The notes beneath the pieces are model-generated. The model was given only the letters and a program-made list of their open reading frames with translations, was not told the origin of the DNA and ran no database searches. Position numbers and translations under genes: made by a program. From positions 3,904,001-3,968,000 of the forward strand of contig OZ253564.1 in the NCBI GenBank assembly GCA_965262915.1: a stretch of 64,000 nucleotides of DNA. The letters are read 5' to 3'. The DNA is from Candidatus Spongiisociaceae bacterium. Its GTDB lineage: Bacteria > Actinomycetota > Acidimicrobiia > Spongiisociales > Spongiisociaceae. Shown here one piece after another: positions 17,134 to 35,979 of this stretch. The stretch's first letter is position 1. Each line of letters begins with the position of its first letter.

Positions 17134-18108
17134 TCAGTGATGCCATGCGACGCCGCGATCGCGCAGCATCCGGCGGTAGGCCAAGGCACCGGCATCCGTC
17201 CCGCGCAGATGGAGTTCAGCGGTCAGATCCAGCGGTAGTTCCTCGGGACGCTGGTTCTCGACCACCATCTGATCCTGGGACATGACGACCGCGTCGAAGG
17301 CATACCAGTCCTCATCCGGCTTGGTGAGGCTCCAGTCACGCGATGTGAAGAAGTATTGGATGGTCTCTCCGGATGAGACCGGGCAGCACGTGAACATCAT
17401 GGAGTAGTTCCGGCCCTTGGGGCTCATCGGGTTGGTTTGCCGTTCGTGCTCAGGGATGCGGGTGGTAACTGTCAGCCTGACTGTGAACGGCAGGAACAGC
17501 CTGTACGAGCGGGTGGTGTTGTTGCGGTCGTCGGGTACGTCGTAACTGAACCCGACGTCGGAGGTTTGCGGTCTCACGTGGGGGTAAGTGGGCTCGCTAC
17601 GCTGGCCGAGCAGGCCGTCGTGAACCCACGGGAAATGCGTGTAGTCCAAGACGTTCTCGATGACCCGGGCGGCGTTGGCCTTCCAACGGAAGTCGTCGTA
17701 GAGGACCGTCGTCATCGACTCGCTCTCGTACGCGGGATAATCGGGAATGGGGTACTTCGGTTCGTCGAGCGCCACCCATACCAACCCGTAGCGCTGCTCG
17801 GTTCGGAACCGTGGAACCCTGGCTGCCGATGGTATGCGGCCACCGGGGGGAAGGGTCGGTATGAGGGTGCAGACCCCGGTCCTGTCGTATCGCCAACCGT
17901 GGTAGTGGCAGACTATCTGGTCACCCTCCATCCACCCCAGAGACAATGGTGTACCGCGGTGGATGCAGAGATCCCTCAGAGCAACGATCTCGTCGCCGAC
18001 CCGGAACAGGACCATCTGCTCTCCAAGAAGGGTGGCGGCCACCGGGTTGGCTCCTACAGATGCCACCCTCTCCACCGGATGCCAGTAGTTGCGAAGTTCA
18101 TCTCCCAT
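17134..18108 (-). CDS. Rieske non-heme iron oxygenase alpha subunit 1 (NdmA/VanA/SxtT-like)
   Basis: CIHRG...CHYHGW Rieske site; ENVLDYTHFPWVH and QD mononuclear Fe ligands; QRPEELPLDLTAELH...YRR tail. Confidence 0.93.
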   Translation of the reverse strand: MGDELRNYWHPVERVASVGANPVAATLLGEQMVLFRVGDEIVALRDLCIHRGTPLSLGWMEGDQIVCHYHGWRYDRTGVCTLIPTLPPGGRIPSAARVPRFRTEQRYGLVWVALDEPKYPIPDYPAYESESMTTVLYDDFRWKANAARVIENVLDYTHFPWVHDGLLGQRSEPTYPHVRPQTSDVGFSYDVPDDRNNTTRSYRLFLPFTVRLTVTTRIPEHERQTNPMSPKGRNYSMMFTCCPVSSGETIQYFFTSRDWSLTKPDEDWYAFDAVVMSQDQMVVENQRPEELPLDLTAELHLRGTDAGALAYRRMLRDRGVAWHH

Positions 18109-18197
18109 CGCATGATCCCTTCAACTGGGCTTCCGTTCGGCCGAGAGTATCACGTGGCTTGATCGCTACGTCTACGGGTACCGCCAGTACCAACCGT

Positions 18198-18246
18198 TCC
18201 CACCATGTGGAACCGGGTACCGGCCGCTATCGTCGCAACTTACGAT
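18198..18246 (+). promoter_or_regulatory. Operator TCCCACCATGTGGAA with downstream -10 TACGAT
   Basis: Near-palindromic 15-mer at 18198-18212; -10 at 18241-18246 (28-bp gap); lies in the divergent Rieske 1/ADH intergenic region. Confidence 0.6.
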
Positions 18247-18300
18247 CGAACGTCGCGCATCGGGGCAAGGACCGAAGGACAGTTCGGGAAGGATAGGAAC

Positions 18301-19392
18301 GTGGGGTCTAGAGTCGGAAAGGGTGTCATATCCGCAGTCAGGGGTGGGCCCGTCTCCGTCGAGGAACTTACGGTCGGGGATCCGGGTCCCGGGGAAGTGC
18401 TCGTTCGGGTCGCCGCTAGTGGAGTCTGCCACAGCGACATGCACTACGTGGATGGTCACCTCGGAGAAGACTTTCCCTTCCTACTGGGTCACGAAGGTTC
18501 CGGGTACATCGAGGCAGTCGGCGACGGGGTCGATGTGGCAAGAGTCGGCCAGTTCGTCGTGCTCACATACCGCGCGCCTTGCCATGAGTGCCCTTGCTGC
18601 CTGGCAGGTCGGAGCGACCACTGTCGTCAACCTCTCGAAGCCGCGACGCGACCCGAGACGCGCGACGGTCGGCAACTCACACCCGCCCTCAGCCTCGGTA
18701 CGTTCTCCGAATACCTCATCGTTGCAGCACCGCAAGCAATCCCGGTCTCGACCGACTGCCCGCCGGAGCAGGCCTCACTCCTGGGATGCGCCGTTTCGAC
18801 GGGTGTGGGCTCGGTCCTGCGGACCGCCGGAGTCGAGCCCGGCCGGACCGTCGCAGTATTCGGAGCCGGGGGAGTCGGAGTCAACGTGATCCAGGGAGCA
18901 CGTTTGGCGCGAGCCGGCCGCATCATCGCCGTGGATCTGGTATCCAAGAAGCTCGATTGGGCGACATCCTTCGGCGCTACGGACGTGGTCGACGCCTCAC
19001 GAACGGATCCCGTCGAGGAAGTCCGGGAACTCACCGGAGGGTACGGCGTGGACTATTCGTTCGATGCAGTAGGCCTATCAACCACACTCCGGCAGTGCGT
19101 GGAGGTCCTTGACTACAGGGGTACCGCCGTGCTGATCGGATTCCCTTCCGCAGATCAGGTCTTGACACTTCCGATGCAGAGGTTCTTCTTCCCTGGGACC
19201 ACACTGAGGGTCTCGCTGAACGGCGACTCGCTGGCTTCCCGGGATTTCCCTCAACTCATCCGTTGGTACCTCGATGGTCAGCTCGATCTGGACAGCCTGG
19301 TCACAGAGAGAATCGGTCTGGCTGATGTGGGAGCCGCTTTCGAGGGGATACATCGGGGCGACACCATCCGGAGCGTGATCAGCCTCCCTTGA
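18301..19392 (+). CDS. Zn-dependent alcohol dehydrogenase, MscR-like S-(hydroxymethyl)mycothiol/formaldehyde dehydrogenase
   Basis: GVCHSDMHY..G...FPFLLGHE; structural Zn Cys cluster; DG..LTPAL.LG; GD.L.SRDFP; H-RGDTIRSVI. This pattern follows actinobacterial MscR as I recall it. Confidence 0.8.
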   Translation: MGSRVGKGVISAVRGGPVSVEELTVGDPGPGEVLVRVAASGVCHSDMHYVDGHLGEDFPFLLGHEGSGYIEAVGDGVDVARVGQFVVLTYRAPCHECPCCLAGRSDHCRQPLEAATRPETRDGRQLTPALSLGTFSEYLIVAAPQAIPVSTDCPPEQASLLGCAVSTGVGSVLRTAGVEPGRTVAVFGAGGVGVNVIQGARLARAGRIIAVDLVSKKLDWATSFGATDVVDASRTDPVEEVRELTGGYGVDYSFDAVGLSTTLRQCVEVLDYRGTAVLIGFPSADQVLTLPMQRFFFPGTTLRVSLNGDSLASRDFPQLIRWYLDGQLDLDSLVTERIGLADVGAAFEGIHRGDTIRSVISLP

Positions 19393-19477
19393 CGACCCGG
19401 GCACTCTCTGCGACTCGACCCCAGGAGCCGAACTCGGTCGGGCGAGGTGTGTGGTCCTTGGTCAGATGTCCGGACTC

Positions 19478-20425
19478 TCAGCGACTTTCCCGTCGATATG
19501 GAATCGCAAGCGCAGCCGGTGCGCCCAGTTTCCTGGCGAGTCTCGTACTACTCGTAAACAGGACAAGGAAGACGAGAGTAAAGACGAACGGCATCATGAG
19601 CAAGAAATCGGACGGAATCGGGATGTCCAGAAGCTGAAAGGTAAGGCCGAGATTGGCAAGCCCTCCGAAAGCGTACGACGCGAACAGTGCTCTCCAGGGC
19701 CGCCAGCCGGAGAACGCCACCATCGCGAACGCGATCCAGCCCAGTCCGCCCGAGAACCCTTGCTGCCACGCTCCGATGAGCACCACCGAGAGATAGCCAC
19801 CTGCCAGCCCCGTGAAAGCGCCACCCACCAGAACATGCATGTACCGCGTCAGGGTCACCGGTACGCCGGCCGCGTCCGCTGTGGCGGGATCCTCACCGAC
19901 CGCCCTCGCTGCGAGACCGCGACGTGTTCTGAAGAGGTAGAAACTGGCCGATCCGACGAGCAACCAAGATATGTAAACGAGCGCGTCATGGCCTAGGAGT
20001 ATCGGCCCCAAGATAGGCAGGTCGGAGAGGGCCTCGGGAAATACGGGGCCCAGGTCTCGAGGTGGTGACCTGCGTATCAGTGGCGGGCTGCCGATCTCAC
20101 CCAGATACGCGGAGAGCCCACTTCCCAGGATGAACAGCCCCAGACCGGAGACGATCTGGTTGACGCGGAAACTCACCGCCAGGACCGCATGGATCAGGGA
20201 GAACACCATCCCCATCAACATGGCCACGAATAGACCCAGCCAAGGGTTGTCTGTCCCCGATGCAGCCCAGAACCCGGTGACCGCGCCGATCAGCAGCATC
20301 CCCTCGATACCCAGATTCATCACACCCGAACGCTCGGTGAGGATCTCACCGACCGAAACAAGCACAAGGGTGGTTCCAGAAGCGATCGCGGCGACGATCG
20401 AGAGAATGAAGACCGTATCGTTCAT
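19478..20425 (-). CDS. ABC permease (NupC type), importer 2
   Basis: GEILTERSGVMNLGIEG; GLGWIAFAMVAFSGWRP; GAPAALAIPYRRESR. Confidence 0.93.
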   Translation of the reverse strand: MNDTVFILSIVAAIASGTTLVLVSVGEILTERSGVMNLGIEGMLLIGAVTGFWAASGTDNPWLGLFVAMLMGMVFSLIHAVLAVSFRVNQIVSGLGLFILGSGLSAYLGEIGSPPLIRRSPPRDLGPVFPEALSDLPILGPILLGHDALVYISWLLVGSASFYLFRTRRGLAARAVGEDPATADAAGVPVTLTRYMHVLVGGAFTGLAGGYLSVVLIGAWQQGFSGGLGWIAFAMVAFSGWRPWRALFASYAFGGLANLGLTFQLLDIPIPSDFLLMMPFVFTLVFLVLFTSSTRLARKLGAPAALAIPYRRESR

Positions 20426-21561
20426 AGAGGCACCCCTTCGAGCGCTACCAGCGGCTCGGTTCGATCAACTACTCGAAGCCGGTAGAGGGCGAAGAACTGG
20501 CCGGCCGCGGCAGCCAGCAGGAGAATACCGTGAAATGCGATGACGACGGAGTTAGGAATCCCGAGGGTCTGCAACGCTTGGCCGGAGTTCGTGATCGCCG
20601 CGACAACAACCCCAACGGGTATCACCGCGGCCAGATTGAAACGCGCCAGCGCCGCGACAACGATGCCCGTGTAGCCCAGGCCAATCGACAACGCGCCCGG
20701 TTCGAGAGCACGGAGCACTCCTGATACCTCTATCCCGCCTGCCAAGCCGGCAAGGCCTCCAGAAAGAACGAGCACCGAGATGATCTTCCGTGTCACGTTC
20801 ATGCCCGCATAACGTGCGGCTTTCCGGGAGTCCCCGATCGCCCTCACCTCGAACCCCCACGGGGTGTACCTGATGGCAGCCCACAGCCCGACGGCAAGCA
20901 TCACCGCGATCAGGACGCCTATGTGCAGTCCGCGACGTCCTCCTCCCCAGAGAAGGGCGAGTTCGGCGACTTGGGGAATCGGTTCCCCGGTGGGGAAGTT
21001 CGCCCGGTCGAGATCCCGCCATAGGCTCCTGCTACCCAGCACGAGGTAGTTCATGACGAAGAGCGCGATGAAGTTCAACATGAGCGTCGATGTGACCTCG
21101 TCCGTGCCGAAGTATGCACGTGGCAGAGCAGCGATCAAGGCGAGCAGGCATCCACCGAGGACGCCGGCAGCGAGCACCACCGGGACAGCAATCCAGGGAG
21201 ACCAACCGTCCACGAAGAGGATCGCGACCCCGGATGCGCCGATCGCACCGAAGTACAACTGCCCCTCTGCGCCGATGTTCCAGATGACCATCTTGAAGGA
21301 GAGCGCGGCGGCGAGCCCGGTCAGTATGAGCGGAGTCGCCAGTATCAGCGTCCGTCTCAAAGCCAACTCGGAGCGGATACCGCCCGTGATCATCAGTTGT
21401 AGCGACGGTATCGGTTCGAAGCCGGTGACCAGAAGCAGTAACGCTCCCGCGAGGATGGCCCCGCATAGGACTCCCAACACCAGGGCCAGCTTGAATCGAG
21501 CCGACTGGCGTGGCCGAGGCTCCACCCGCAACGTACCCACGAACGCGAGGAGGCCACTCAT
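20422..21561 (-). CDS. ABC permease (NupB type), importer 2
   Basis: WNIGAEGQ; DEVTSTLMLN; GYTGIVVAALARFN. Confidence 0.93.
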   Translation of the reverse strand: MSGLLAFVGTLRVEPRPRQSARFKLALVLGVLCGAILAGALLLLVTGFEPIPSLQLMITGGIRSELALRRTLILATPLILTGLAAALSFKMVIWNIGAEGQLYFGAIGASGVAILFVDGWSPWIAVPVVLAAGVLGGCLLALIAALPRAYFGTDEVTSTLMLNFIALFVMNYLVLGSRSLWRDLDRANFPTGEPIPQVAELALLWGGGRRGLHIGVLIAVMLAVGLWAAIRYTPWGFEVRAIGDSRKAARYAGMNVTRKIISVLVLSGGLAGLAGGIEVSGVLRALEPGALSIGLGYTGIVVAALARFNLAAVIPVGVVVAAITNSGQALQTLGIPNSVVIAFHGILLLAAAAGQFFALYRLRVVDRTEPLVALEGVPL

Positions 21562-21782
21562 GAGCTCAGCGGATACACCGCTTCAATCGACCGGGTGCCG
21601 GACGACGGGTAATGGGCCCGCATCCGTGAGACAACGTATCTCGCGCCAAGCCGGCCGGGTCCCGATCAGGGACACTGGACAACGTGGGGGTGCGATGGTC
21701 CTCGTCGTCTCTCGACTCATCCCGAGCAGATCCGGCGAGACCCGGACGAGTGCCCGTTCATCAACCCGGGCCTGCCCGGCCC

Positions 21783-21937
21783 GTGGTCTGTCTGTGAAGG
21801 GCCGGTGCGGCGTGCGCCGGCAGCGGCCTCGCGATGCCCACCGACCAAGGCGAACCGCAGGGGTACGTTTAGCGTCGGAGTGGCGAAGGGCGCCGCCGGC
21901 AAGCAGGACATGGCGAGTCAAATTGCAGCCAGACCAC
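21783..21937 (+). mobile_element. MITE-like repeat, copy A (ends GTGGTCTG...CAGACCAC)
   Basis: Aligns along its whole length with the reverse complement of 28468-28629; terminal inverted repeats; TAG on the right flank. Confidence 0.7.
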
Positions 21938-22040
21938 TAGGCGGGTGGTCTAAAACGGTGGGGAGCAACGGCCCGTCTTCCTCTGAACAGGCACTATGTT
22001 ATCGCTCGACGGGCCGTGAAGGGAGTTTCACACCACCCTC

Positions 22041-23225
22041 CTAGGTTGGAATGCTCGCTCCCTCGAGGAATGACACCAGCCAGTCGCAGCATGCCTGGAC
22101 TTCCACGAGGCCCAGAGATGCTCCGGCCGGTACCCGTTCGGTACCCTCGTTGTCGACGAGCGGTCCCCCGAAGACCTCGAAACTGCCGCTGACCAACTCC
22201 GCCTTCTTCGCCTCGATTGCCTCGAGGATGGCCGGAGTAACGGCGGGCCCGTACGTAGCCTCGATCAACATGCCTTCGGCAATACCGCCGTAATAGAGTT
22301 CAGGCTGCCAAACACCTGCGATCATGTCCTCGACGGCCTTCTGGTAGTACGCGTCCCACCGGATATGGAAACCGCCGGCCCAGGACTGCGGGTTGACATC
22401 TGACAAGTCCTGGTCGTAACTGCTGAACAGTATCCCCTCGCGATCGGCAAAGGACGGGATCCCCGGCGAACTCATGTCGCTGACGATCACATCCGCGCCG
22501 GCTTCGAAAAGCGTGCGCGCCGCTTCCCGTTCGAGGTCAGGGTCGTACCACGAGTTCACCCACAAGATCTCCATCCTGGCGTCCGGATTCACGGACTCCA
22601 CTCCCAAAGCAACTGCGTTGAGGGTCCGGACCTCGATCGGAACAGGGAAGCCGGAGATGAAGCCGACCACTCCGGTTTCGGTCAGCAGTCCCGCCATCAT
22701 CCCGTGGAGGTATCGGACTTGCTCGATTGAGGTGAAGTATTGAGCGAGGTTGTCGGCAAGCATCGTTCCGCCCACAGTTGCAAACTTCGAGTCGGTATAG
22801 TCCTCGTTGATCGTGAGAATGTCCTCGGTATGACTCGAACCGGTGGCCAGGATCAGCTGGTGGCCTTGCGACGCCAGTTCCTCTAGGGCAAGCTGAGCCC
22901 GCTGGCCCGGGTTGGCACCCTCGATCCTCGTGATCTCGATTCCCGGATACTTCTCTTTCACACGGTCGATAGCTGCGTTGTGCGATTCGTTCCAACCACC
23001 GTCCAGTAGTGGCCCATCGAAGATCACGCCGACTTTCAGACCGGAGCCGTCGGCACCTAATTCACTGCCCGACGCGGCTGTCGTAGCTACCGTGGTCGTA
23101 GCGGCTTGAGTAGTCGCCGGAGCCTGTGTGGCCACCGTTGTCTCGGCGATGTCGTCATCGTCGCCACACGCTCCGGCCAGGAGGGCGAGAGCCAGTGTCA
23201 GAGCTAGTAGTCGCCTCCAGGTCAT
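22041..23225 (-). CDS. BMP-family ABC substrate-binding lipoprotein, importer 2
   Basis: MTWRRLLALTLALALLAGAC lipobox; DGGWNESH; PIEVRTLNAVALG; WVNSWYDP. GAGGAG RBS. Confidence 0.93.
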   Translation of the reverse strand: MTWRRLLALTLALALLAGACGDDDDIAETTVATQAPATTQAATTTVATTAASGSELGADGSGLKVGVIFDGPLLDGGWNESHNAAIDRVKEKYPGIEITRIEGANPGQRAQLALEELASQGHQLILATGSSHTEDILTINEDYTDSKFATVGGTMLADNLAQYFTSIEQVRYLHGMMAGLLTETGVVGFISGFPVPIEVRTLNAVALGVESVNPDARMEILWVNSWYDPDLEREAARTLFEAGADVIVSDMSSPGIPSFADREGILFSSYDQDLSDVNPQSWAGGFHIRWDAYYQKAVEDMIAGVWQPELYYGGIAEGMLIEATYGPAVTPAILEAIEAKKAELVSGSFEVFGGPLVDNEGTERVPAGASLGLVEVQACCDWLVSFLEGASIPT

Positions 23226-23262
23226 AGTGCTTCTCCTCAACTCGCACGGTACGTTGGAGCTT

Positions 23263-23290
23263 TGATAACCGGTTGTCATATCCGTGTCAA
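23263..23290 (-). promoter_or_regulatory. Palindromic operator TGATAACCGGTTGTCA overlapping a TTGACA-type promoter for BMP 2
   Basis: 16-bp near-perfect palindrome at 23263-23278; minus-strand TTGACA at 23290-23285; a related palindrome TCATAATGGTTATGA at 23438-23452. Confidence 0.5.
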
Positions 23291-23514
23291 GCTATAGCCC
23301 GAATCTCCAAGGTTGGCTGGTGTGGTGAGGGTCCACTACAAGGGTCACAGGATCTCGCTTCGGCGACTGCCAGAAGTGGCGCGGTCCGCAGACTGCTTGG
23401 GCGCCGCCACGGAGATGGCGGTGCTGGGTGGGTCATGTCATAATGGTTATGAATTCTGTCTTCTGAGACCGGTCGTGTGTCCGAGAAACGATTCGACGTG
23501 TCACGCCAAGCCCG

Positions 23515-25110
23515 ATGGGCTTGACTAAGCGGGCGCGGCGTTCCCACGGTCCCGGCGAACCGGGGCCGAGTCGGGAGGAGTCGGCGACTCTCGATGCCGG
23601 GAGTGGATTCGCCGCCGAACTCCGTTCGATCCGCAAGTCCTTCTTCGGTGTGCCCGCCAATCACAACATCGATTTCACTGTCAGGTGGGGTGAGGTTCAT
23701 GCGCTACTCGGCGAGAACGGTGCCGGCAAGTCGACTCTGTGTTCGGTCCTCGCCGGGCTCTACCGACCTGACGCCGGCGAGATCATCATCGATGGAGCAC
23801 CGGTAGAGTTCCGATCGCCCCATGACGCATTGGCCGCCGGTGTCGGGATGGTCTACCAGCACTTCCGCCTGGTCGACACATTCACGGTGGCCGAGAACCT
23901 CGCGCTCGGCCACGAAGCAGAAGGCCGCCTGTCCCGCAAGAAGATCGAGGCCGACGTCAGCGCGCTCAGCAAGGCTTACGAGCTGCCGGTGTCTCCAAGG
24001 GCCCGGATCTGGCAGCTCTCTGTGGGTGAGCAGCAGCGCGTCGAGATCCTGAAGCTATTGCACCGCGGCGTCCGTATCCTCATTCTGGACGAGCCGACCG
24101 CAGTCCTGACGCTGCAGGAGTCAGAGGCGCTGTTCCGAACGGTTCGGCTCATGGCCGATGAGGGCAAAGCCGTCATCTTCGTATCTCACAAGCTCGACGA
24201 GGTCCTCGCCGTGTCGGACCGCATAACGGTCCTGCGGGACACCGAGAAGGTCGTAGAGATGCCGGCGGCATCTGCCGATGCCGCCGGCTTGGCGCGCATG
24301 ATGGTCGGACGCGATGTGAAACTGCCTCAACGGGGGAGTTCCGAGGCGCCAGGCGCACCGGTACTGACCGTACGGGGAATGACGGTGGTAGGCGATCGCG
24401 GTGTCAAAGCCGTCCGCGGTGTCGATCTGAACCTACGCAGGGGCGAGATCGTGGGGATCGCCGGTGTTGCCGGAAACGGTCAGCGCGAACTCGCCGAAGC
24501 CCTCGTGGGTCTCCGACGTACCGAAAATGGAACGGTGACTCTCGATGACACCGACATAACCAAGGCATCTCCTCTGGACCGTATCCGGCTGGGTCTGGGT
24601 TTCGTACCCGAGGATCGCCTCGGCATGGGTCTCGCAGGCGGCCTGTCGCTCGAGGACAATCTGATCCTGAAGTCGTACCGGTGGCCCCCCTATCGACGCG
24701 GCCTCCGACTGTCATCCCGGGTGATTCGGAAGAGTGCGCGGCATCTGACCGAACGATTCGACATCCGAGGGGCCCTCACGGATTTGCCGGTTCGCTTTCT
24801 CTCGGGAGGGAATCTTCAACGGGCGATACTTGCCCGGGAGATATCCCAACAACCCAAGGTGCTGATCGCCGGCTCACCCACGAGGGGCCTGGACATCGCC
24901 GCCATCGCAGCCGTCCGCGAGATGCTGCTCGAACAGCGCGAGAACGGCAAGGCCATTCTTCTGTTGTCCGAAGACCTCGACGAGCTGCATTCCCTGGCGG
25001 ATGCCATCCTCGTCATGTACGAGGGCCGAATCGTCGGGCAGATTGCGCCTGACCGATTCGACCCCGAAGAGGTCGGACTGATGATGTCGGGGCTCAGCGA
25101 CACCCGATAG
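23515..25110 (+). CDS. ABC ATP-binding protein (NupA type), importer 2, divergently transcribed
   Basis: GENGAGKST; LDEPTAVLT; LSGGNLQR; SPTRGLD. Confidence 0.95.
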   Translation: MGLTKRARRSHGPGEPGPSREESATLDAGSGFAAELRSIRKSFFGVPANHNIDFTVRWGEVHALLGENGAGKSTLCSVLAGLYRPDAGEIIIDGAPVEFRSPHDALAAGVGMVYQHFRLVDTFTVAENLALGHEAEGRLSRKKIEADVSALSKAYELPVSPRARIWQLSVGEQQRVEILKLLHRGVRILILDEPTAVLTLQESEALFRTVRLMADEGKAVIFVSHKLDEVLAVSDRITVLRDTEKVVEMPAASADAAGLARMMVGRDVKLPQRGSSEAPGAPVLTVRGMTVVGDRGVKAVRGVDLNLRRGEIVGIAGVAGNGQRELAEALVGLRRTENGTVTLDDTDITKASPLDRIRLGLGFVPEDRLGMGLAGGLSLEDNLILKSYRWPPYRRGLRLSSRVIRKSARHLTERFDIRGALTDLPVRFLSGGNLQRAILAREISQQPKVLIAGSPTRGLDIAAIAAVREMLLEQRENGKAILLLSEDLDELHSLADAILVMYEGRIVGQIAPDRFDPEEVGLMMSGLSDTR

Positions 25111-25407
25111 GGGACCACCATCCGGGCCGTTTCGGGACTCCGGGTAGATGAACATCGAACATCGCCCCCGGATACCTCCTCGCGCGACTCCATCCCGGAC
25201 GGACCGCCGCTCGAAGTTGCCGAAACCGGAGGTAGACCCTGTGCGCGACGAGGCTGGATTGCGGATCGGATGCGCCACTCTCTAACTGAAATGCCTGGTC
25301 CGCGACGTGTTTCCGTAGGTTAGGGTCGAAGGGGCTCGGCGGGCACCGGAACCCGGGCATCAACCTTGCTCCGAACCAACATGAGCGGGCCCTACCTAGG
25401 AGGACAG

Positions 25408-28444: not shown

Positions 28445-28467
28445 AGTCGCAATGCCTCCTATCCTTA

Positions 28468-28629
28468 GTGGTCTGTCTGCCAAATGATTCGCCGTGTCCT
28501 GCTTGCCATCGACGCCCCTCGCTGTGTTCCGCCTCCTCGACGTACGCTACCGGTACGCCTTCGTCGGCGGGCCTTGCGAAGAACACCGCTGCCGGCGCAT
28601 GCCACACCACCCTTTGACGGGCAGACCAC
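28468..28629 (-). mobile_element. MITE-like repeat, copy B
   Basis: Imperfect inverted repeats TAGTGGTCTGTCTGCCAAA (28466-28484) / TTTGACGGGCAGACCACTA (28613-28631), 16/19 matches; TA(G) on both flanks; homologous to 21783-21937. Confidence 0.75.
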
Positions 28630-28660
28630 TAGTCGTCTCCGGACCGGCGGCACCACTCCG

Positions 28661-29608
28661 CTACCGGCTCTCTCTCGCAAATGGTCTGCCCAAGGCAGCC
28701 GGCGCTCCCAAGCGACGGGCGGCCTCAGGACGGGACGAGATGACTGCGAGCACCAAGATGGTCATGATGAACGGGAGCATGGCCAAGAAATCAGTGGGTA
28801 CACCGAATCCAACGATCTGAAACGTGAACCCCAATGTAGTGAGCGCACCGAACACATACGCGGCCAACATCGCCCGCCACGGCCTCCATCCGGAGAATAT
28901 CACGAGACAGAACGCGATCCAGCCCAGTCCGGCGGTGAGCGAGTCCTGCCAGGTACCGAGTATCTGGATTGAAAGGTATGCCCCCGCCATGCCGGCCAGC
29001 GCTCCACCCACCAGTGTTGCACTGTAGCGAACCGCAACAACTGGAATTCCCGCCGCATCGGCCGTAGCAGGATCATCACCCACCGCCCACAATGAGAGTC
29101 CCGGCCTAGTACGAAACAGGAAGTAGCTTGCAACGGCCACGATCACCCAGGACAGATAGACAACGACATCATGGTCGAAGACAAGCGGGCCTACGACCGG
29201 CAGACCGGTCATACCTTCTGGAAAGACACTGGAGAATCGAGCACCTGGGGGCCGTCCCGTGAGCTTTGGGGTGGTGGCGTCACCGAGGAAACCCGACATA
29301 CCCGTCCCGATGATCACGAGCGCCAATCCGGAGATGATCTGGTTGACACGCAGGCTGACGGCCAGTAGGGCATGCACGGTAGCGAGTAGCGTGGCTGCCA
29401 GTATGCCCACGAGCATCCCCAGCGCGAGGCTCTCCGTTTCGCTCGTAACCCAGAAGCCGCTCGCCGCCGATATCAGCATCATTCCCTCGATCCCGAGGTT
29501 CATGACCCCGGACCGCTCCGCAAGGATCTCCCCTATCGCGGCCAGCAGCATCGGGGTCCCGGCGGCGATCATGGAAGCTATCGACAGGACCAGGATCGTG
29601 TCGTTCAC
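28661..29608 (-). CDS. ABC permease (NupC type), importer 3
   Basis: GEILAERSGVMNLGIEG; close paralogue of 19478-20425. Confidence 0.93.
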   Translation of the reverse strand: MNDTILVLSIASMIAAGTPMLLAAIGEILAERSGVMNLGIEGMMLISAASGFWVTSETESLALGMLVGILAATLLATVHALLAVSLRVNQIISGLALVIIGTGMSGFLGDATTPKLTGRPPGARFSSVFPEGMTGLPVVGPLVFDHDVVVYLSWVIVAVASYFLFRTRPGLSLWAVGDDPATADAAGIPVVAVRYSATLVGGALAGMAGAYLSIQILGTWQDSLTAGLGWIAFCLVIFSGWRPWRAMLAAYVFGALTTLGFTFQIVGFGVPTDFLAMLPFIMTILVLAVISSRPEAARRLGAPAALGRPFARESR

Positions 29609-30708
29609 GGGGGACCGCGCTTTGACACAAGAGTGACCCGGTAGCGGAGGAGGAACTCCCCTGCCGCCACGAATAGCAGAACGAGCCCTTGCAGGAATAG
29701 GACGATATCGATCGGAATACCCATCTGCTGGAGCGCGGTCCCCGAACTGACGAGCCCGGACAGGAAGACCGCCACCGGTACCAGCATCAAGGGATGCAGT
29801 CGCGCCATGGAGGCCGCGATTATCCCGGTGAAGCCCACTCCCGTCTCCAGCGCCGTGGGCTGGAGTGCGTGGTTGACGCCGGCCACCTCAACGGCTCCGC
29901 CGAGGCCGGCCAGCGCGCCGGACACACACAGCACGGCGATGATGTTACGCGAGACGCTCATCCCGGCATACCTGCCGGCGGTCGGCGAGTCTCCGATGAC
30001 CTTCGTCTCATAGCCCCACCGGCTCGCCTTGAGGATCCACCACATCAGAACGGCGACAACGAGCGCTATGAGGAAGCCGACATGTAAGCGCCCCCAGAAC
30101 CGCGGAAGCTCCGCCACCTCGGGAATGGGCTTCCCGGTTGCGTAAGCAACGCTCTCCGGATCTCGCCAGTAGCTGAAGCTCCCGAATATCAGGTATTCCA
30201 TGAAGTGGGTCGCTATGAAGGTGAGCATGAGCGTGGAGATGACCTCATCGGTCGAGAAAAAGACCTTGAGCACTGCACCGATTCCGGCCCACAACATCCC
30301 GCCGACGATTCCTGCAACCATGATGGCGGGCATCAGCACCCAGAATGGTGATTGCGGTAAAGAAATGGCGATACCGCTTGCCGCGATCGCTCCCATCATC
30401 AGCTGGCCGTCCCCGCCGATGTTCCAGATTCTCATCCTGAACGAGACTGCTGCAGCGAGCGCCGTGAATACCAGCGGTGTGGACAGGAGAAGCGTTCTCA
30501 CCAGTGGATTCCTGCCACCGAAGGCCGATTGAAAGAGCTCTGCATAGGCTTCCAGCGGCGAGTGGCCGTCGACCGCCAGTGCGAGTGCACCGGCCAGCGT
30601 CGCCGTCAAGACGGAGGCAATCGGAACCACAATCCGGGCCTGCCACGAGGCCCTCTCCTTTGGCTCGAGACGCAGGCGAGCCCGCGGGATCTCGAAGGTC
30701 GCGCTCAT
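29605..30708 (-). CDS. ABC permease (NupB type), importer 3
   Basis: WNIGGDGQ; DEVISTLML; paralogue of 20422-21561. Confidence 0.93.
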   Translation of the reverse strand: MSATFEIPRARLRLEPKERASWQARIVVPIASVLTATLAGALALAVDGHSPLEAYAELFQSAFGGRNPLVRTLLLSTPLVFTALAAAVSFRMRIWNIGGDGQLMMGAIAASGIAISLPQSPFWVLMPAIMVAGIVGGMLWAGIGAVLKVFFSTDEVISTLMLTFIATHFMEYLIFGSFSYWRDPESVAYATGKPIPEVAELPRFWGRLHVGFLIALVVAVLMWWILKASRWGYETKVIGDSPTAGRYAGMSVSRNIIAVLCVSGALAGLGGAVEVAGVNHALQPTALETGVGFTGIIAASMARLHPLMLVPVAVFLSGLVSSGTALQQMGIPIDIVLFLQGLVLLFVAAGEFLLRYRVTLVSKRGPP

Positions 30709-30712
30709 CGAC

Positions 30713-32278
30713 TCACGATCTGCGTGCCCCGGCCATCATCAACCCGATCGCTTCGAGGTCGAACTCCATTGGATCCATCTCCCCGACGATTTCGCCCTCG
30801 AACATCACCAGAATGATATCGGCGAGGGCCCGGACCTCATCGAGATCCTCCGAGATGAGCAAGATGCCGAGTCCATTCCGTGCGGCGTTCACAAGGAGGC
30901 GACGGACAGAATCTGTTGCGGCAAGATCAAGCCCCCTCGTCGGAGATGCCGCTAGCAACACGTCCGGATCCTCCGAGATCTCGCGAGCCAGAATGGATCG
31001 TTGGAGGTTTCCTCCCGAGAGGAGGCGGATGGGGAGTTCGCCCCGGCCACCGCGGATATCGTATTCCGCCACCAGACGCTTCGCCCTCTTGCGGATCTCC
31101 CTTTCCGAGAGCAGTAGACCGCGCGAGATGGGATGCCGTCGGTAGGCCTTGAGAACGAGATTCTCCTTCAGGGACAGATTGGAAGCCAACCCCATCACAA
31201 GCCGGTCTTCAGGGACGAAACCGAATCCCGCCTTGATGCGCGCAAGCGGACTCCCATGGGTCACATCAACCCCATCGATCGTCACAGACCCCCCGGAAAC
31301 AGGACGCAGCCCGGCGATCGCCTCAGCGAGTTCGCGCTGCCCGTTACCGGCGACACCGGCGATCCCGACCACCCGGCCTCTGTGCACGTCGATGTTGACA
31401 CCCTTGACGGCGTCCCTCCCCCGGTCACCCAATACCGCCAGGTCTCTCAGTGCGAGAACCGGCTCCTCCGGTTCGGGTTCCCCAGCCGATGGAGCGCTGG
31501 GCTCCTTGTTTGGCCCGCGCAGGACGAAGTCTCTGCCCACCATCATCCTGGCCAGCCGGCTCGCATCGGCTTCAGCCGTGGCCACTTCGCCTGTCTTTCG
31601 ACCGTCGACCAGGACGGAGACCCGGTCGGAGACCTCCAACACCTCGTCGAGTTTGTGGGACACGAAGACGACTGCTCTTCCGTCCTCGGCGAGCTTCCGG
31701 ACCCTCGCGATGAGTAGGTGGGACTCCTGTGGCGTCAGGACGGCCGTCGGCTCGTCGAGGATCAGCACCCGCACTCCGCGATAGAGAAGCCGAAGGATCT
31801 CCACACGCTGTTGCTCACCGACAGAAAGCTGCCAGGTTCTTGCTGAAGGAGAAACGGGCAACCCCATATCTTCGATGAATTCGCCGATCTCTCTCTCGAT
31901 CTGGCTTCTGGGTAAACGTATCGGGGTTCTCGGATGTCCAAGCACCAGGTTCTCGGCCACGGTGAACCGTTCCACCAGCCTGAAGTGCTGGTACACCATG
32001 CCGATTCCGTTCGCCAAGGCGTCGCTCGGCGACCTGAAGACCACAGGTTGCCCGTCGACGGTGATCTCACCCGAGTCGGGCCGGTAAAGACCGGCGAGAA
32101 CCGAGCACAAGGTGGACTTGCCCGCCCCGTTCTCGCCCAGCAACGCGTGAACCTCGCCCCAGCGAAGGTCGAGGTCTATGCGGTCGTTGGCCTGGACTCC
32201 GTAGAAGGCCTTGGAGATCGATTCCAAGCGGACAGCGGCACCCGATGCTCCATGCGCACTCTTCGGTTCGTCAGCCAC
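30713..32278 (-). CDS. ABC ATP-binding protein (NupA type), importer 3
   Basis: GENGAGKSTLCSVLAGLYRPD is identical to importer 2; LSGGNLQR. Confidence 0.95.
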   Translation of the reverse strand: MADEPKSAHGASGAAVRLESISKAFYGVQANDRIDLDLRWGEVHALLGENGAGKSTLCSVLAGLYRPDSGEITVDGQPVVFRSPSDALANGIGMVYQHFRLVERFTVAENLVLGHPRTPIRLPRSQIEREIGEFIEDMGLPVSPSARTWQLSVGEQQRVEILRLLYRGVRVLILDEPTAVLTPQESHLLIARVRKLAEDGRAVVFVSHKLDEVLEVSDRVSVLVDGRKTGEVATAEADASRLARMMVGRDFVLRGPNKEPSAPSAGEPEPEEPVLALRDLAVLGDRGRDAVKGVNIDVHRGRVVGIAGVAGNGQRELAEAIAGLRPVSGGSVTIDGVDVTHGSPLARIKAGFGFVPEDRLVMGLASNLSLKENLVLKAYRRHPISRGLLLSEREIRKRAKRLVAEYDIRGGRGELPIRLLSGGNLQRSILAREISEDPDVLLAASPTRGLDLAATDSVRRLLVNAARNGLGILLISEDLDEVRALADIILVMFEGEIVGEMDPMEFDLEAIGLMMAGARRS

Positions 32279-32327
32279 AGGGACTCTGCATAGTCGCCGA
32301 CCGGGAAGCCCTCTTGCCGAGGACTGG

Positions 32328-33482
32328 TCAGGACTCAGCTATCTCGCCTTCGATATTCTGGTTCAGCCACGTACAACAAAGGACTCGCTCGTTCATCGGG
32401 ATGGTCTCGCCTGCGGCGATCTGCGTGTTTCCTTCATTGTCGACGACGGGCCCGGCGAAGATGTCGAACGTGCCGTCAATGATCTGTTGACGCCGCTCCA
32501 GCGCCCTATCGAGGACGTCTTGAGGAACGTCCTCGTGGAACTTGGAGAGCCCCATGACGCCGTCAGCCAGTCCCCCGTAGAAAAAGTGCGGCTCAAAGGT
32601 GCCATCACGGACCGACTCTGCCACCGAGACGTAGTAGGGACCCCACTCGTAGGTGAAGGAGGTGACCCAATGGTCGGGCGCCAGACCCGACTCGTCTTCG
32701 CCGTAACCGAGATACCACTTGTCCTCCCCAGTTGCCACCTGCGCCATGGCCGGCGAGTTCAGGTTGGAGACCAGCACGTCGGCGCCTGCCGCCACGAAAG
32801 CCTCCCCTGCCTGCTGCTCCTTTGGCGGGTCGAACCACGAGTTCGTGAATATGGCAATGACCCTGGCATCAGGGTTCACCTCCTGAACACCTAACGCGAA
32901 GCCGTTCAAATGCTTCACGACGCCCTCGAGCGGGAAACCAAGCACAGCACCTATGATGTTGGACTCTGTCATGGCACCGGCGATCATGCCGTCCACGTAC
33001 CTTCCCTCCTCGGAGGCGATATCAAAGGCCGCCGAGTTCTCCGTATTCTGGTACCCGCCCCAATGGAGGAACACGGTGTCGGGGTACTGGGGGGCCACCT
33101 CGAGGATGTCGGGCTGGAAGAAGCTCGTAAGAATGACAATGTCATAGCCATCCTCCGCAAGCTCCGCCATCGCAGCCTGGCCGGGCTGCCCGGGCAGGAT
33201 CTGCTCGACGTTGACAGTTTCGATCCCGGGAAGGTGCTGCTCCACGTATTGACGGGCGCGGTCGTGACCCTGGCCCCAGCCACCAACGATACCGCCGTCG
33301 TAGATCCACGCCATCCGGAGACCCTCACCAGGCATACTTGCCTCAGTGGTTGCCGGGGCTTGCGTAGTCGGCGCCTGAGTCGTCGGCGCCTGAGTCGTAG
33401 CAACCTCATCGTCACCGCAAGCTACCGCGACGAGCATCAAGACCGCAGCTACAACAACCGCCTTGGTCATCCGATGGATCAT
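32328..33482 (-). CDS. BMP-family ABC substrate-binding lipoprotein, importer 3
   Basis: Lipobox AVAC; TTQAP repeats; GGWGQGHD; NGFALG; TNSWFDPPKE. Confidence 0.93.
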   Translation of the reverse strand: MIHRMTKAVVVAAVLMLVAVACGDDEVATTQAPTTQAPTTQAPATTEASMPGEGLRMAWIYDGGIVGGWGQGHDRARQYVEQHLPGIETVNVEQILPGQPGQAAMAELAEDGYDIVILTSFFQPDILEVAPQYPDTVFLHWGGYQNTENSAAFDIASEEGRYVDGMIAGAMTESNIIGAVLGFPLEGVVKHLNGFALGVQEVNPDARVIAIFTNSWFDPPKEQQAGEAFVAAGADVLVSNLNSPAMAQVATGEDKWYLGYGEDESGLAPDHWVTSFTYEWGPYYVSVAESVRDGTFEPHFFYGGLADGVMGLSKFHEDVPQDVLDRALERRQQIIDGTFDIFAGPVVDNEGNTQIAAGETIPMNERVLCCTWLNQNIEGEIAES

Positions 33483-33803
33483 CTTGACTCCTCCCTATTC
33501 GAACCTGCCGTACACACTGCCTTGCGGTTACGCCGACGGGTCCTCCGAAAATCCGACACTAGCAACGATAGGTCGACAGTGACCTCCGTTGTCCGGCTTA
33601 TCGAGTTTCGGGGAGCTCCTAGGAGGATGCTGAATTACCCCCGGTTGGCCCGGCCGTCGATAACAAACTACCTGTTCAGGGAATGCCGGGCCAAGCGCTG
33701 CCATCGTTTTTCGGCACCCTCCAATGCCAAGTTGGGGGCAGGCGCACACCGAAAGCACAACTCGCTCGGTCCCCGCGCTGCGGTCGATCGAGTCGGGGCG
33801 GTC

Positions 33804-34556
33804 TCATTGAAACATCAGACCTCCGTTGACGATGAGCGACTGCCCGGTGATGAAGTCGGATTCGGGCCCTGCGAAGAACAGGGCCGCCCCCACCATATCG
33901 TCCGGAACCTGGGTGCGCTTGAGGGACCGGTTGGCCACGATCCTCTCGTTCACCTCATGGCCCTGTTTGGTCAGGATCTCGTCGTCCGGGATCAGGTCCG
34001 GGGCCAGGGTGTTGACCCGGATTCCATCGTCACCCACTTCCCGGGCCAGCGACCTCGTGAAGCCCACGAGCGCTGACTTCGAGGCAACGTAGTGCAGGAA
34101 GCCGGGTATGCCTTCCCAGGCCACGGTGGAACTGATGTTGATGATCTTCCCGTAGCCCGCTTCCTTCATGTATGGATGGACGGCCCGGCAGCAGAGGAAC
34201 ACGCCCCGAACGTTGACCGCCATCGCCAGATCCCATTCCTCGTCGGTGAGGTCGATCCAGGGACCTACGGTCGCTTTCTTGAAGAAGGCGGCATTGTTGA
34301 TGAGGATGTCGATCCTTCCGAACCGATCGTGAACGGTCTTGGCCATCTTCTCCGTGGAACGCCGGTCGGCCACATCTACTTCGACTCCGAGCGCGGTACC
34401 GCCGAACTCCGATATCTCCGCCACCGTCGAAGAGGGGTCTGATATATCGGCAACCGCCACGGCGGCGCCCTCCCGAGCCAGCCCGAGACAGTACGCGCGC
34501 CCTAGTCCCTGTGCGCCTCCGGTCACGATCGCCACACGCTCGCGAAGCAGACTCAT
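33804..34556 (-). CDS. Short-chain dehydrogenase/reductase
   Basis: TGGAQGLG, NNAA, NISS, YVASK; paralogue of 25408-26163. Confidence 0.93.
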   Translation of the reverse strand: MSLLRERVAIVTGGAQGLGRAYCLGLAREGAAVAVADISDPSSTVAEISEFGGTALGVEVDVADRRSTEKMAKTVHDRFGRIDILINNAAFFKKATVGPWIDLTDEEWDLAMAVNVRGVFLCCRAVHPYMKEAGYGKIINISSTVAWEGIPGFLHYVASKSALVGFTRSLAREVGDDGIRVNTLAPDLIPDDEILTKQGHEVNERIVANRSLKRTQVPDDMVGAALFFAGPESDFITGQSLIVNGGLMFQ

Positions 34557-34923
34557 CCATTGAACCTCAAGGTCGAGACCAGAACCGCGGATTGTCGGTC
34601 CCGACTCGGCCTGTACTCCCGACTCGCCAGGGTAACACCTCGTTCCTCAGGCTCCCTGCCGGTTAGTATGAGCAAGCGGACAGTTCGACTGGACCCGAAT
34701 GCTGATCGGGCTACGGTGACGGCGCCTCCAATCGGCGTGATGAGGGTGACGACGACATCTCCTCAACGAACGGTATCCGAATTCGAATTCAAGAAGGTAA
34801 GCTCGCCGGCTCTTGAGCAACAGAGTCCGGAAATGCTGTCCCCAGGCTGTCTTGTTTCCCTGCAGACCCACCGCCGGGGTCATCCGGCTCCAGCGGGCTG
34901 CTAAACGGAGGGGGTTAGCTGCA

Positions 34924-35979
34924 ATGACGAACTACGTTGATTTACCGGAGAGCTCGATCCACAACGAATTGGACGCCGCCACCGAAATGCGCCTCTACGC
35001 AGCGATGCGGAACTTCTGGCATCCGGTCATGTACGCGGGCGACCTTGAGGACGATCCCGAACCCGCCGTCCTACTCGGCGAACAGCTGGTGCTTGCGCGT
35101 ATGGAAGGTGCGGTACGGAGTTTCCGCGATCTGTGTTGCCACCGAGGGGCCGCCTTGTCGCTCGGCTGGAACGAAGGAACCCAACTGCGTTGTTTGTATC
35201 ACGGCTGGACCTACGGAGTAGACGGTGTTTGCACCTCGATCCCCGCTCGTTTCGGTATGAGGATCCCGACTCGTGCGAGGTTGAAGGCTTTTCATGCGCG
35301 CGAGGCGGCGGGTTTGATCTGGGTTTGCCTGGCGGACCAGCCGGTATTCGATATTCCCGAGTTCCCGGAGTTCGAGAATCCGACGTTCAAGGTTCTCCAA
35401 GGGCCGTTCTATGACTGGAGAACGAGCGCCCATCGGCGACTCGAGAACTTCATGGACTTTGCCCACTTCGCCTACGTGCACGACGGTGTGCTCGGGAGCA
35501 GGGACGATCCCGAAGTTCCCGATCATGACGTATGGAAGGAAACCGATTCGGAACTCGCGTTCTACCGAACTGTGAAGGAACCGATCGAGGGCCTCACCGG
35601 CTACGAATCGGATGAAACACTCGTCGACGTCGACTACACCTACCGGCTGACAATGCCCATCAGCATCCATTTCGACCGTCACTACCTTCCCGGCGAGTCG
35701 CGCTACGTCTTGTTTCTGGCTTGTTCACCGGTCGGCCCCAAACATACTCGGTCGTTCTGGTTCCTGGCCAGGAACTATGCCCTCGACGCGAACGATCAGG
35801 AGTTCCTGGACTTCGAGCGGTTCGTCCAGGAACAGGACCGTCCGGTCGTCGAGAGCCAACGACCCGAGATGCTCCCCTATGATCTCACCGCCGAGTTACA
35901 CGTGAGAGCAGCGGACAAAGTCTCCGTTGCCTACCGGCGATGGCTAGTCAAGTTGACCAGCGAACTCAATCCAGCCTGA
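34924..35979 (+). CDS. Rieske oxygenase alpha subunit 4 (NdmA/NdmB-like)
   Basis: CCHRG...CLYHGW; ENFMDFAHFAYVH; QDRPVVESQRP...ADKVSVAYRRWL. Confidence 0.93.
   Translation: MTNYVDLPESSIHNELDAATEMRLYAAMRNFWHPVMYAGDLEDDPEPAVLLGEQLVLARMEGAVRSFRDLCCHRGAALSLGWNEGTQLRCLYHGWTYGVDGVCTSIPARFGMRIPTRARLKAFHAREAAGLIWVCLADQPVFDIPEFPEFENPTFKVLQGPFYDWRTSAHRRLENFMDFAHFAYVHDGVLGSRDDPEVPDHDVWKETDSELAFYRTVKEPIEGLTGYESDETLVDVDYTYRLTMPISIHFDRHYLPGESRYVLFLACSPVGPKHTRSFWFLARNYALDANDQEFLDFERFVQEQDRPVVESQRPEMLPYDLTAELHVRAADKVSVAYRRWLVKLTSELNPA

Follow-up and report, generated by a model that had tools for sequence, protein, structure and literature searches.

Four paralogous Rieske oxygenases related to NdmA and SxtT in a predicted catabolic island of a Candidatus Spongiisociaceae bacterium, and candidate electron carriers encoded elsewhere in its genome

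The best solved relatives of the enzymes reported here are NdmA and NdmB of Pseudomonas putida CBB5 (PDB entries 6ICK and 6ICL), Rieske oxygenases which, like NdmC, demethylate caffeine in a position-specific manner with formaldehyde as co-product, and whose partner NdmD combines a Rieske domain with flavin/NAD and plant-type Fer2 domains. The second-best solved relatives, SxtT and GxtA (6WN3 and 6WNC; the latter entry, named 'SxtDIOX', is GxtA according to a table of the review PMC12445004), are described in that review as alpha-only enzymes (alpha3) whose reaction is the hydroxylation of C-H bonds in a nitrogen-rich heterocycle. The subject of the current report is a set of four genes, here called R1 to R4, that encode relatives of these proteins in a Candidatus Spongiisociaceae bacterium (assembly GCA_965262915.1), within a stretch of 64,000 nucleotides, "the window", that covers positions 3,904,001 to 3,968,000 of the forward strand of contig OZ253564.1; coordinates up to 64,000 are those of the window and larger ones those of the genome. 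An earlier reading of the same DNA, the original prediction, had taken the four for demethylases or hydroxylases that attack different ring positions of polymethylated heterocycles, and that use a shared reductase encoded elsewhere or an unusual partner.

The explanation that we favour, with slightly more confidence than doubt, starts from the demonstrated family placement, ligands and gene order of the four enzymes, from the genome-wide inventory of electron carriers and from the conservation of these elements in relatives. It holds that R1 to R4 would be Rieske non-heme-iron monooxygenases of the alpha-only (alpha3) kind within the NdmA/SxtT branch. They would be four of nine deeply diverged paralogues that reside in a catabolic island, at least about 140 kb long, of what would be a Ca. 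Spongiisociaceae-like symbiont of sponges. Each oxygenase might be the terminal enzyme of its own route for the uptake and breakdown of N-heterocycles, whose substrates could be bases that resemble purines, pyrimidines or triazines, as such or methylated, imported by ATP-binding cassette (ABC) systems of the BMP or NMT1 type. The oxygenases would hydroxylate a C-H bond or an N-methyl group; the N-methyl route would free formaldehyde, and the hydroxylation of a C-methyl group or of the ring would yield alcohols for oxidation by adjacent dehydrogenases. Further processing might be the task of molybdenum (Mo) hydroxylases, of ATZ/TRZ-type deaminases, of short-chain dehydrogenases/reductases (SDR), alcohol dehydrogenases (ADH) and aldehyde dehydrogenases (ALDH), and of decarboxylases of the UbiD/UbiX or Amidohydro_2 types. 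Electrons would be supplied in trans by carriers common to all of the paralogues, most probably, and especially for R4, by a [3Fe-4S]-type ferredoxin and an NAD(P)H-ferredoxin reductase of the glutathione reductase (GR) type, with a lone FNR-Fer2 reductase (ferredoxin-NADP reductase architecture with a Fer2 domain; 3023106-3024329) as the alternative donor.

All four proteins match both the Rieske family PF00355 and the VanA_C catalytic domain PF19112, a combination that the Pfam scan found in exactly four open reading frames (ORFs) of the window, all of them intact: R1 (17134-18108, minus strand), an oxygenase alpha subunit of 324 amino acids; R2 (26278-27270, minus strand), of 330 amino acids; R3 (27386-28444, minus strand); and R4 (34924-35979, plus strand). 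The longest ORFs of R3 and R4 extend to 28483 and begin at 34813, respectively; the shorter forms, with probable starts at 28444 and 34924, had been preferred in the original prediction and fit the alignment of the nine genomic paralogues. In that alignment the Rieske ligands (CxH...CxxH) are invariant, as are, in 9 of 9 sequences, the iron ligands within ENxxDxxHFxxVH and the Asp of a QD pair, so that the four genes lie and are equipped as foreseen. The cluster ligands and the 2-His-1-carboxylate site that mark the alpha-only VanA_C class are thus both present in R1 to R4; the Pfam scans of their neighbours, in which PF00866 was not searched on its own, returned no beta-subunit family. The alignment also contains the motif H.G.LG and the C-terminal tail QRPE.(L/I)P.D...ELH. 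This common tail had been described correctly through ELH, but the spacing thereafter was off by one in two places, since 4 residues precede the D and a further 5 precede (Y/L)R. The predicted strong differences between the middles of the substrate domains are borne out by many insertions and deletions there, with identities to R1 of 46% for R2, 40% for R3 and 39% for R4, and of 31-46% for all of the paralogues. None of R1 to R4 matches an NCBIfam equivalog.

Family placement was drawn from phmmer comparisons with all PDB chains, by pairwise score. NdmA, NdmB, SxtT and GxtA are the top PDB matches of all four proteins (E 1e-37 to 1e-52, 130-181 bits), as against E values of 1e-13 to 1e-22 and at most 81 bits, mostly across the Rieske domain, for DdmC, and the kinship proposed at the outset therefore stands. 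NdmA is the best match of R1 (E 8.6e-49; DdmC 4.6e-14) and is matched by R2 at 1.8e-46 (SxtT 1.8e-40; DdmC 5.4e-20) and by R3 at 2.1e-38 (GxtA 6.8e-38; DdmC 1e-21), and R4 matches NdmB at 2.3e-52 and NdmA at 1.3e-51 in a full-length alignment. SxtT and GxtA follow at 1e-36 to 1e-41; KshA and carbazole dioxygenase lie at 1e-10 to 1e-17, Stc2 at 1.7e-9 (R4 only), and CntA is also far lower. Both domains are aligned between R4 and NdmA, NdmB, SxtT and GxtA, and between R1 to R3 and NdmA, while several aligned stretches of R1 to R3 with SxtT or NdmB span the N-terminal half only. By pairwise score, R1 to R4 are nearer to NdmA and NdmB than to other characterised Rieske oxygenases. Among database proteins, R4 has 736 homologues at E <= 1e-20; the best 120 of these 736 are 52-97% identical, under automatic names only, such as 'vanillate O-demethylase' or 'methylxanthine N1-demethylase'.

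With NdmA and NdmB the four share not only the Rieske and 2-His-1-carboxylate ligands but also the C-terminal ESQ(R/W)P region. They differ at the positions that are given as specificity determinants of the caffeine pocket (N282/F286 in NdmA, Q289/L293 in NdmB; bioRxiv 10.1101/2021.12.17.472166), where R1 to R9 read D/M, Q/L, Q/A, E/Q, Q/L, A/T, E/L, N/I and S/A. These are eight distinct pairs among nine paralogues, with Q/L common to R2 and R5; among the four of the window R2 alone is NdmB-like. The equivalent of the stacking Phe (F168) is F in R2 to R4 and V in R1. They differ further in their surroundings, where BMP importers, SDRs and Mo-hydroxylases take the place of ndmCDE, and in their host, an actinobacterial and probably sponge-associated organism. 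Relative to SxtT and GxtA, the context is a catabolic one of transporters and catabolic enzymes, and the Pfam scans of the window returned no biosynthetic genes. The O-demethylases VanA and DdmC have the VanA_C domain in common with R1 to R4, but no VanB-type reductase is adjacent here, and the match to DdmC, with which, rather than VanA, the comparison was made, is weak.

The four genes are part of a larger expansion. A VanA_C scan of the genome (5,055,038 bases) gave 11 matches, of which nine are Rieske genes above the Pfam cut-off: the four of the window, four at 4023546, 4025039, 4045884 and 4060709 (55-94 kb past the window end) and one at 3622682, so that a stretch of about 140 kb holds eight of the nine. 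A quick maximum-likelihood tree, computed from 104 Rieske proteins, puts every one of the nine paralogues into a supported orthogroup of its own together with orthologues from symbionts. R4, R7 and R8 fall into a single clade of 47 rows (SH-aLRT 100) with R5, R6 and the ferredoxin-linked genes of three related loci (L039, L086 and L089). The distribution of the genes was followed in 40 genomes, 24 of the same family and 16 of other families of the order; two of the latter (G028 and G039) are unpublished, and without these each zero given below for 16 genomes becomes 0 of 14. VanA_C Rieske genes occur in 21 of the 24 family genomes (weakly in G017) and in none of the 16 others. R1 orthologues (86-92% identity) are present in six of the seven genomes of the same genus and in 0 of 17 other family genomes, and R2 orthologues in 2 of the 24. 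The closest public loci to R1 come from metagenome-assembled genomes (MAGs) labelled Ca. Spongiisociaceae, Ca. Spongiisocius or Acidimicrobiia, and we read a sponge origin from the family name and from isolate labels that resemble the bin names of sponge metagenomes. NCBI lists Ca. Spongiisociaceae under Acidimicrobiia, within Actinomycetota. Searches of the literature on this family, and on Rieske enzymes in sponge Acidimicrobiia, returned nothing about these genes. The family-specific expansion of a nearly uncharacterised Rieske branch in sponge symbionts is new, as is its tight linkage to importers of the nucleobase type.

In keeping with the original prediction, six-frame profile searches of the whole genome placed no reductase or ferredoxin for the oxygenases in the window: its Rieske matches are the four oxygenases only, its sole Fer2 match is a CoxS subunit (56521-57009), and all homologues of Fer4_13, Fer4_15 and GR-type reductases lie outside of it. 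A conventional pair is encoded nearby. The GR-type ferredoxin reductase (Pyr_redox_2/Reductase_C; 4022326-4023543), detected by phmmer with the genome's other GR-type reductase, and a ferredoxin of 68 residues (4024652-4024858), detected between two Rieske genes by the Fer4_13 and Fer4_15 scans, form with these genes a module R6-ferredoxin-R5-ferredoxin reductase about 54 kb past the window end. The operon reads, in order, CrtI-like flavoprotein, BMP binding protein, ATPase, two permeases, CoxL, CoxM, CoxS, ParE-like ORF, R6, ferredoxin, R5 and ferredoxin reductase. The ParE-like member, an ORF of 169 amino acids with a ParE toxin domain (genome 4026225-4026734, minus strand; L104:4225-4734), lies between CoxS and R6 of this catabolic operon. 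A donor encoded elsewhere had thus been anticipated correctly; of an unusual partner there is no sign, the pair being of a conventional kind.

The ferredoxin carries the motif Cx5C...CP, which in PMC2358900 marks the [3Fe-4S] ferredoxins of 'type V' Rieske systems, where they are paired with GR-type reductases. PhdABCD of Nocardioides KP7 and PhtAa-Ad of Mycobacterium vanbaalenii, the type V examples, likewise have a Cx5C...C ferredoxin, together with a reductase of the GR type, beside their Rieske genes. They are dioxygenases for polycyclic aromatic hydrocarbons (PAH) and phthalate (PMC2358900), whereas the enzymes described here are alpha-only VanA_C oxygenases whose coupling to such carriers we infer, a pairing that does not figure among the systems given in the available text of PMC2358900. 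A further likeness is that one carrier set would serve the 2 to 12 Rieske matches that each genome of the family holds, with oxygenase genes remote from those of the carriers. The PAH and phthalate dioxygenases of type V are alpha-beta enzymes. Multi-oxygenase sets with remote, shared carriers are an arrangement already known, documented for actinobacterial (mycobacterial) and sphingomonad oxygenases under the terms 'numerical imbalance' and 'genetic discreteness' (PMC2358900).

The conservation of the pair was assessed in the genomes introduced above and in 79 related loci, of 2-21 kb each, fetched around homologues. The ferredoxin has an orthologue in 19 of the 24 family genomes and in 0 of the 16 others, one copy each, and the GR-type reductase (at least 69% identity) in 18 of the 24, with best values of 37-42% outside the family; to the 2-12 Rieske matches per family genome there corresponds one ferredoxin with one cognate reductase. 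A ferredoxin homologue is found in 10 of the 79 loci, eight of which also have the GR-type reductase, usually in the order Rieske-ferredoxin-Rieske-ferredoxin reductase. As R4 belongs to the same clade as the ferredoxin-linked R5 and R6, the ferredoxin route is favoured for R4. A complex prediction for two copies of R4 with the ferredoxin scored 0.01 and 0.00, which counts neither for nor against binding.

A genome-wide search for reductases of the FNR type, proposed earlier as a check, returned one gene, with the only PF00175 match and the only PF00970 match of the genome (3023106-3024329). Its product has NAD_binding_1 and a C-terminal Fer2 domain at E <= 1e-8 and FAD_binding_6 in the same frame; it comes closest to the models PaaE, Hcr and BenC, and the reductases of benzoate and phthalate dioxygenases are among its PDB relatives. 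None of the 16 Rieske matches in the genome falls within it, so that it is not NdmD-like, and the genome lacks a reductase of the NdmD architecture. Taken together, the ferredoxin/reductase module and this orphan protein mostly explain, at the scale of the genome, the puzzle of the absent donor. Three other candidates were set aside. A Mo-hydroxylase acting as direct donor, on the premise of a CoxLS enzyme that lacks its flavoprotein, fails since the window (55524-56504) and the R6 operon each have CoxM; a Rieske ferredoxin with a GR-type reductase at 1.164-1.166 Mb belongs to a soluble di-iron monooxygenase cluster and would be a back-up at most; and the Fer2 match at 3600868 stems from an Fe-S protein of the succinate dehydrogenase type (Fer2_3 and Fer4). 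The di-iron region (L105:6426-11241, genome about 1.164-1.169 Mb) may be noted in its own right as a second potential electron chain.

Several considerations weigh against the explanation that we favour. The placement in the NdmA/SxtT branch is drawn from pairwise scores rather than from a tree rooted with references (NdmA/B/C, SxtT/H, GxtA, VanA, DdmC and TsaM). The 47-row clade with the ferredoxin-linked paralogues does not include R1, R2 or R3, and the sister group of the R2 orthogroup includes a Mycobacterium MAG (L099) in which an FNR-type reductase lies directly downstream of the Rieske gene. Alpha-only oxygenases of the VanA kind are, according to PMC2358900, classically paired with FNR(C)-type reductases. 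Orthologues of the FNR-Fer2 protein (at least 56% identity) occur in 18 of the 24 family genomes and in none of the 16 others (at most 39%), and as both donors are therefore family-restricted, phyletic co-occurrence cannot separate the two candidates. The link of R1 to R4 to the ferredoxin pair comes from two other paralogues and from co-occurrence among kin, lines of evidence that are not independent. Neighbour counts in the 79 loci were obtained by phmmer with window proteins on crude ORFs, from loci of unequal length, so that absences are soft. Finally, substrate class, reaction type and the pairing of carriers with oxygenases are inferred.

Several of these points speak for one alternative, which would make R1 to R4 two-component systems fed by the FNR-Fer2 reductase, a protein of PaaE/KshB/VanB architecture, and would reserve the ferredoxin pair for R5 and R6. 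We regard this as possible, though somewhat unlikely. Besides the typing of FNR(C) reductases with alpha-only oxygenases, the tree position of the Mycobacterium relative and the distribution of orthologues among the family genomes, it has in its favour that the protein is the only one in the genome to join FAD_binding_6, NAD_binding_1 and a C-terminal Fer2, and that oxygenases of the two-component type often accept non-native reductases, as stated in PMC12445004. The FNR-Fer2 gene lies, however, between those of a LigD primase-polymerase and a DNA ligase, 880 kb from the window and with no catabolic neighbour; an adjacent FNR-type reductase occurs in 1 of the 79 loci (that of the Mycobacterium MAG), as compared with 8 of 79 for the GR type; and the members of one genus (g3; G009 and G014) have Rieske genes, ferredoxin and GR-type reductase but an FNR protein that is only 37-38% identical.

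The neighbourhood of R1 to R4 points to N-heterocycles as substrates, as had been surmised, through a guanine-type BMP protein, ATZ/TRZ-type deaminases and Mo-hydroxylases. Importer B, a BMP-type ABC system (28661-33482, minus strand) upstream of R3 and R2, comprises a binding protein (32328-33482), an ATPase and two permeases, and R2 closes its operon. The binding protein matches AtzT (6PI5; E 8.7e-59) and a Brucella protein (3S99; 6.1e-57), as against 1.9e-7 for the nucleoside-binding TmpC/PnrA; AtzT has been crystallised with guanine and, likewise, with 2-hydroxyatrazine (PMC6834077). This likeness is one of overall match only, and identity to the importer B protein is 26-36% for the island's other BMP proteins. 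Five amidohydrolases, of which the window encodes three and the DNA just beyond it two, are similar to ATZ/TRZ hydrolases and to deaminases of 5'-deoxyadenosine, 8-oxoguanine and guanine, in every case at scores under the curated cut-offs. They are accompanied by a dihydropyrimidinase/allantoinase-like (hydantoinase) enzyme, a CN-hydrolase that resembles carbamoyl amidases and a formamidase-like enzyme. The genome has about 20 paralogues of the FAD subunit CoxM, which imply many Mo-hydroxylases of the CoxLMS/xanthine dehydrogenase family, unusually many for a genome of 5 Mb. Among the 79 related loci, BMP genes are found in 29, CoxL in 29, CoxS in 21, Amidohydro_1 in 27, SDR in 20 and UbiD in 10.

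As to the reaction, kinship with the Ndm enzymes and the presence of GcvT-like folate-binding proteins suggest N-demethylation; C-H or C-methyl oxidation, followed by dehydrogenation and decarboxylation, is suggested at least as much, since the neighbours of these genes include a dedicated SDR subfamily, an ADH paralogue, an ALDH, UbiX/UbiD and Amidohydro_2 enzymes. Two SDR genes accompany the window oxygenases: one (25366-26163, plus strand) is convergent on R2, and the other (33804-34556, minus strand) heads the strand of importer B, R3 and R2 and is divergent from R4. They are 50% identical to each other, as against 29-32% to the third SDR of the window (42091), with 29% for the one beside R2, and the four SDRs that flank R2, R4 and R7 are 48-57% identical mutually; the pairing of two Rieske loci with related SDRs and BMP importers, remarked on earlier, is thus confirmed. 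The Zn-dependent ADH divergent from R1 (18205-19392, plus strand) scores 387.9 bits with TIGR03451, under the cut-off of 512.9, and is a paralogue of the true mycothiol-dependent formaldehyde dehydrogenase of the genome (2603343-2604416, 652 bits); it adjoins the R1 orthologues in three related loci (L025, L068 and L093), in two of which (L068 and L093) a pair of ALDH and IclR genes lies directly beside the ADH-R1 pair. A precedent for such a gene logic is TsaMBCD of Comamonas testosteroni, in which a Rieske monooxygenase stands beside an SDR and an ALDH that oxidise the hydroxylated methyl group onward (PMC10579966). The likeness is confined to that logic, with Rieske, SDR, ADH, ALDH and decarboxylase genes adjacent to one another; no TsaB-like reductase is adjacent here, and TsaM is not named among the PDB matches listed.

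The original prediction, in its purest form, was that the paralogues are N-demethylases or hydroxylases specific for different positions of one family of polymethylated purine-type compounds, with formaldehyde as co-product. NdmA and NdmB are indeed the best solved relatives; R2 has the NdmB-like Q/L and R8 keeps the Asn of NdmA at the specificity positions; the R3-R2 operon includes the guanine-type binding protein; an ADH resembling formaldehyde dehydrogenase adjoins R1; and genes for GcvT-like aminomethyltransferases are found in the window (50151-51413, minus strand; Pfam, with sub-threshold NCBIfam matches to GcvT, TMAO demethylase and DmdA), beside R8 and, overall, in 7 of the 79 related loci. 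Nonetheless, this explanation appears unlikely to us. The paralogues, with their low identities to R1, form separate orthogroups of uneven spread (R1 in 6 of 24 genomes, R2 in 2 of 24) and are accompanied by different importers and enzymes; their divergent pocket pairs and deep divergence suggest different substrates rather than different positions of a single scaffold. Pure N-demethylation would have no need of the SDR subfamily, the ALDH, UbiX/UbiD or the Amidohydro_2 enzymes, the ADH beside R1 is not the formaldehyde dehydrogenase of the genome (388 bits as compared with 652), no reductase of the NdmD type accompanies these relatives of NdmA, and none of the literature matches listed joins a Rieske N-demethylase with bacterial catabolism and methylguanine. 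A role as ring cis-dihydroxylating dioxygenases, with the adjacent SDRs as dihydrodiol dehydrogenases that would restore aromaticity to the product in the manner of classical aromatic degradation, is very unlikely: it would account for the adjacency of Rieske genes to a dedicated SDR subfamily at R2, R4 and R7 and for the SDR genes in related loci, but PMC12445004 describes the nearest characterised relatives, NdmA/B, SxtT/GxtA and DdmC, without exception as enzymes that monooxygenate or demethylate, and the Pfam scans of window genes found no extradiol or intradiol ring-cleavage dioxygenase.

The remainder of the window is densely coding, with a G+C content of 61-65% except in one bin (36001-38000, 54%). 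Downstream of R1 on the same strand, after a gap of 53 bases (17082-17134), lies a gene with a GTG start for a UbiX flavin prenyltransferase (16518-17081, minus strand; Pfam Flavoprotein; 260 bits with NCBIfam UbiX, whose cut-off is 188). A binding protein of the NMT1/THI5 type, two permeases and an Amidohydro_1 enzyme (12343-16480, plus strand) are encoded convergently on UbiX and R1, and the order R1-Amidohydro_1-NMT1 is kept in all four loci with R1 orthologues (L025, L026, L068 and L093). Importer A, again of the BMP type (19478-25110), has two permeases and a binding protein (22041-23279) on the minus strand and an ATPase (23515-25110) on the plus strand. Importer C, with an ATPase, two permeases and a binding protein (8898-9959), lies within 5002-11660 together with a CrtI/amine-oxidase-like flavoprotein (10068-11660, minus strand), and the same pairing of flavoprotein and BMP importer heads the operon with the ferredoxin module. 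Two tandem Amidohydro_2 genes of the ACMSD/decarboxylase type (36088-37851, minus strand) are convergent on R4; the two share 62.5% identity, lie in the bin of low G+C and have no NCBIfam match and one weak PDB match, to an uncharacterised protein, while a third such gene follows R9 elsewhere in the genome. Beyond them lie genes for a formamidase-like enzyme, an ALDH, an IclR regulator, an SDR, a CN-hydrolase and a UbiD decarboxylase (38350-45228, plus strand; Pfam and NCBIfam), UbiD genes being two in number in the window, and further on a CoxL-CoxM-CoxS type Mo-hydroxylase (53254-57009, plus strand).

Between a permease gene and R3 there is a copy (28484-28640) of a dispersed intergenic repeat of about 150 bp, with 95 blastn matches genome-wide; its non-self matches are 84-93% identical (39 listed), it can form an imperfect hairpin (z -1.76), its contigs reach very high depth in two metagenome runs, and it has no match in Rfam. 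No RNA run among those listed contained 26200-36000. A sequencing run that was guessed to be RNA contained 5% of the words of 26200-36000 and yielded six short contigs, with error-free pieces on R2 and on the permease gene, and was unusable as evidence of expression. Elsewhere in the genome, two tandem Rieske oxygenases of the LigXa_C type, 438 and 471 amino acids long (L024:8309-11055, genome about 3.558-3.561 Mb), adjoin a CN-hydrolase and an NMT1-type ABC importer, with no adjacent reductase. Single- and double-domain proteins of the cytidine/deoxycytidylate deaminase fold directly follow CoxL at L020:2761-4465 (genome about 4.0708-4.0725 Mb), and may be nucleobase deaminases of the same island. 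Fragments of integrase-core and DDE transposases and an ORF of the PaREP1 family (archaeal) are found inside the island, between Rieske-containing operons (L017:10742-11131 and L018:10131-11754). A protein of 1214 amino acids (L022:3285-6929, minus strand) combines leucine-rich repeats with an S-layer homology domain and an OpuAC binding domain of the glycine-betaine type; sponge symbionts typically have eukaryote-like repeat proteins of this sort.

With the naming of candidate partner genes, the usual obstacle for orphan Rieske oxygenases, the question of their reductant, is removed for experimental tests. Were the substrates modified nucleobases or purine alkaloids from the host, these enzymes would add catalysts for the regio-selective oxidation of C-H bonds and N-methyl groups to a Rieske branch with very few characterised members, which among the solved structures matched here are NdmA/B and SxtT/GxtA. 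As a tentative and rather doubtful extension to the symbiont family as a whole, its battery of 2-12 Rieske monooxygenases, wired to a single pair of ferredoxin and GR-type reductase, to BMP importers of the nucleobase type and to many Mo-hydroxylases, might form an undescribed set of pathways that strips N-methyl and C-methyl groups (the latter from methyl to alcohol to acid, followed by decarboxylation) from sponge-supplied purines and pyrimidines of a modified or alkaloid kind, and so delivers these compounds into ordinary base catabolism. On the same condition of host-derived substrates, the enzymes would also show how a widespread lineage of sponge symbionts feeds on the nitrogen-rich metabolites of its host.

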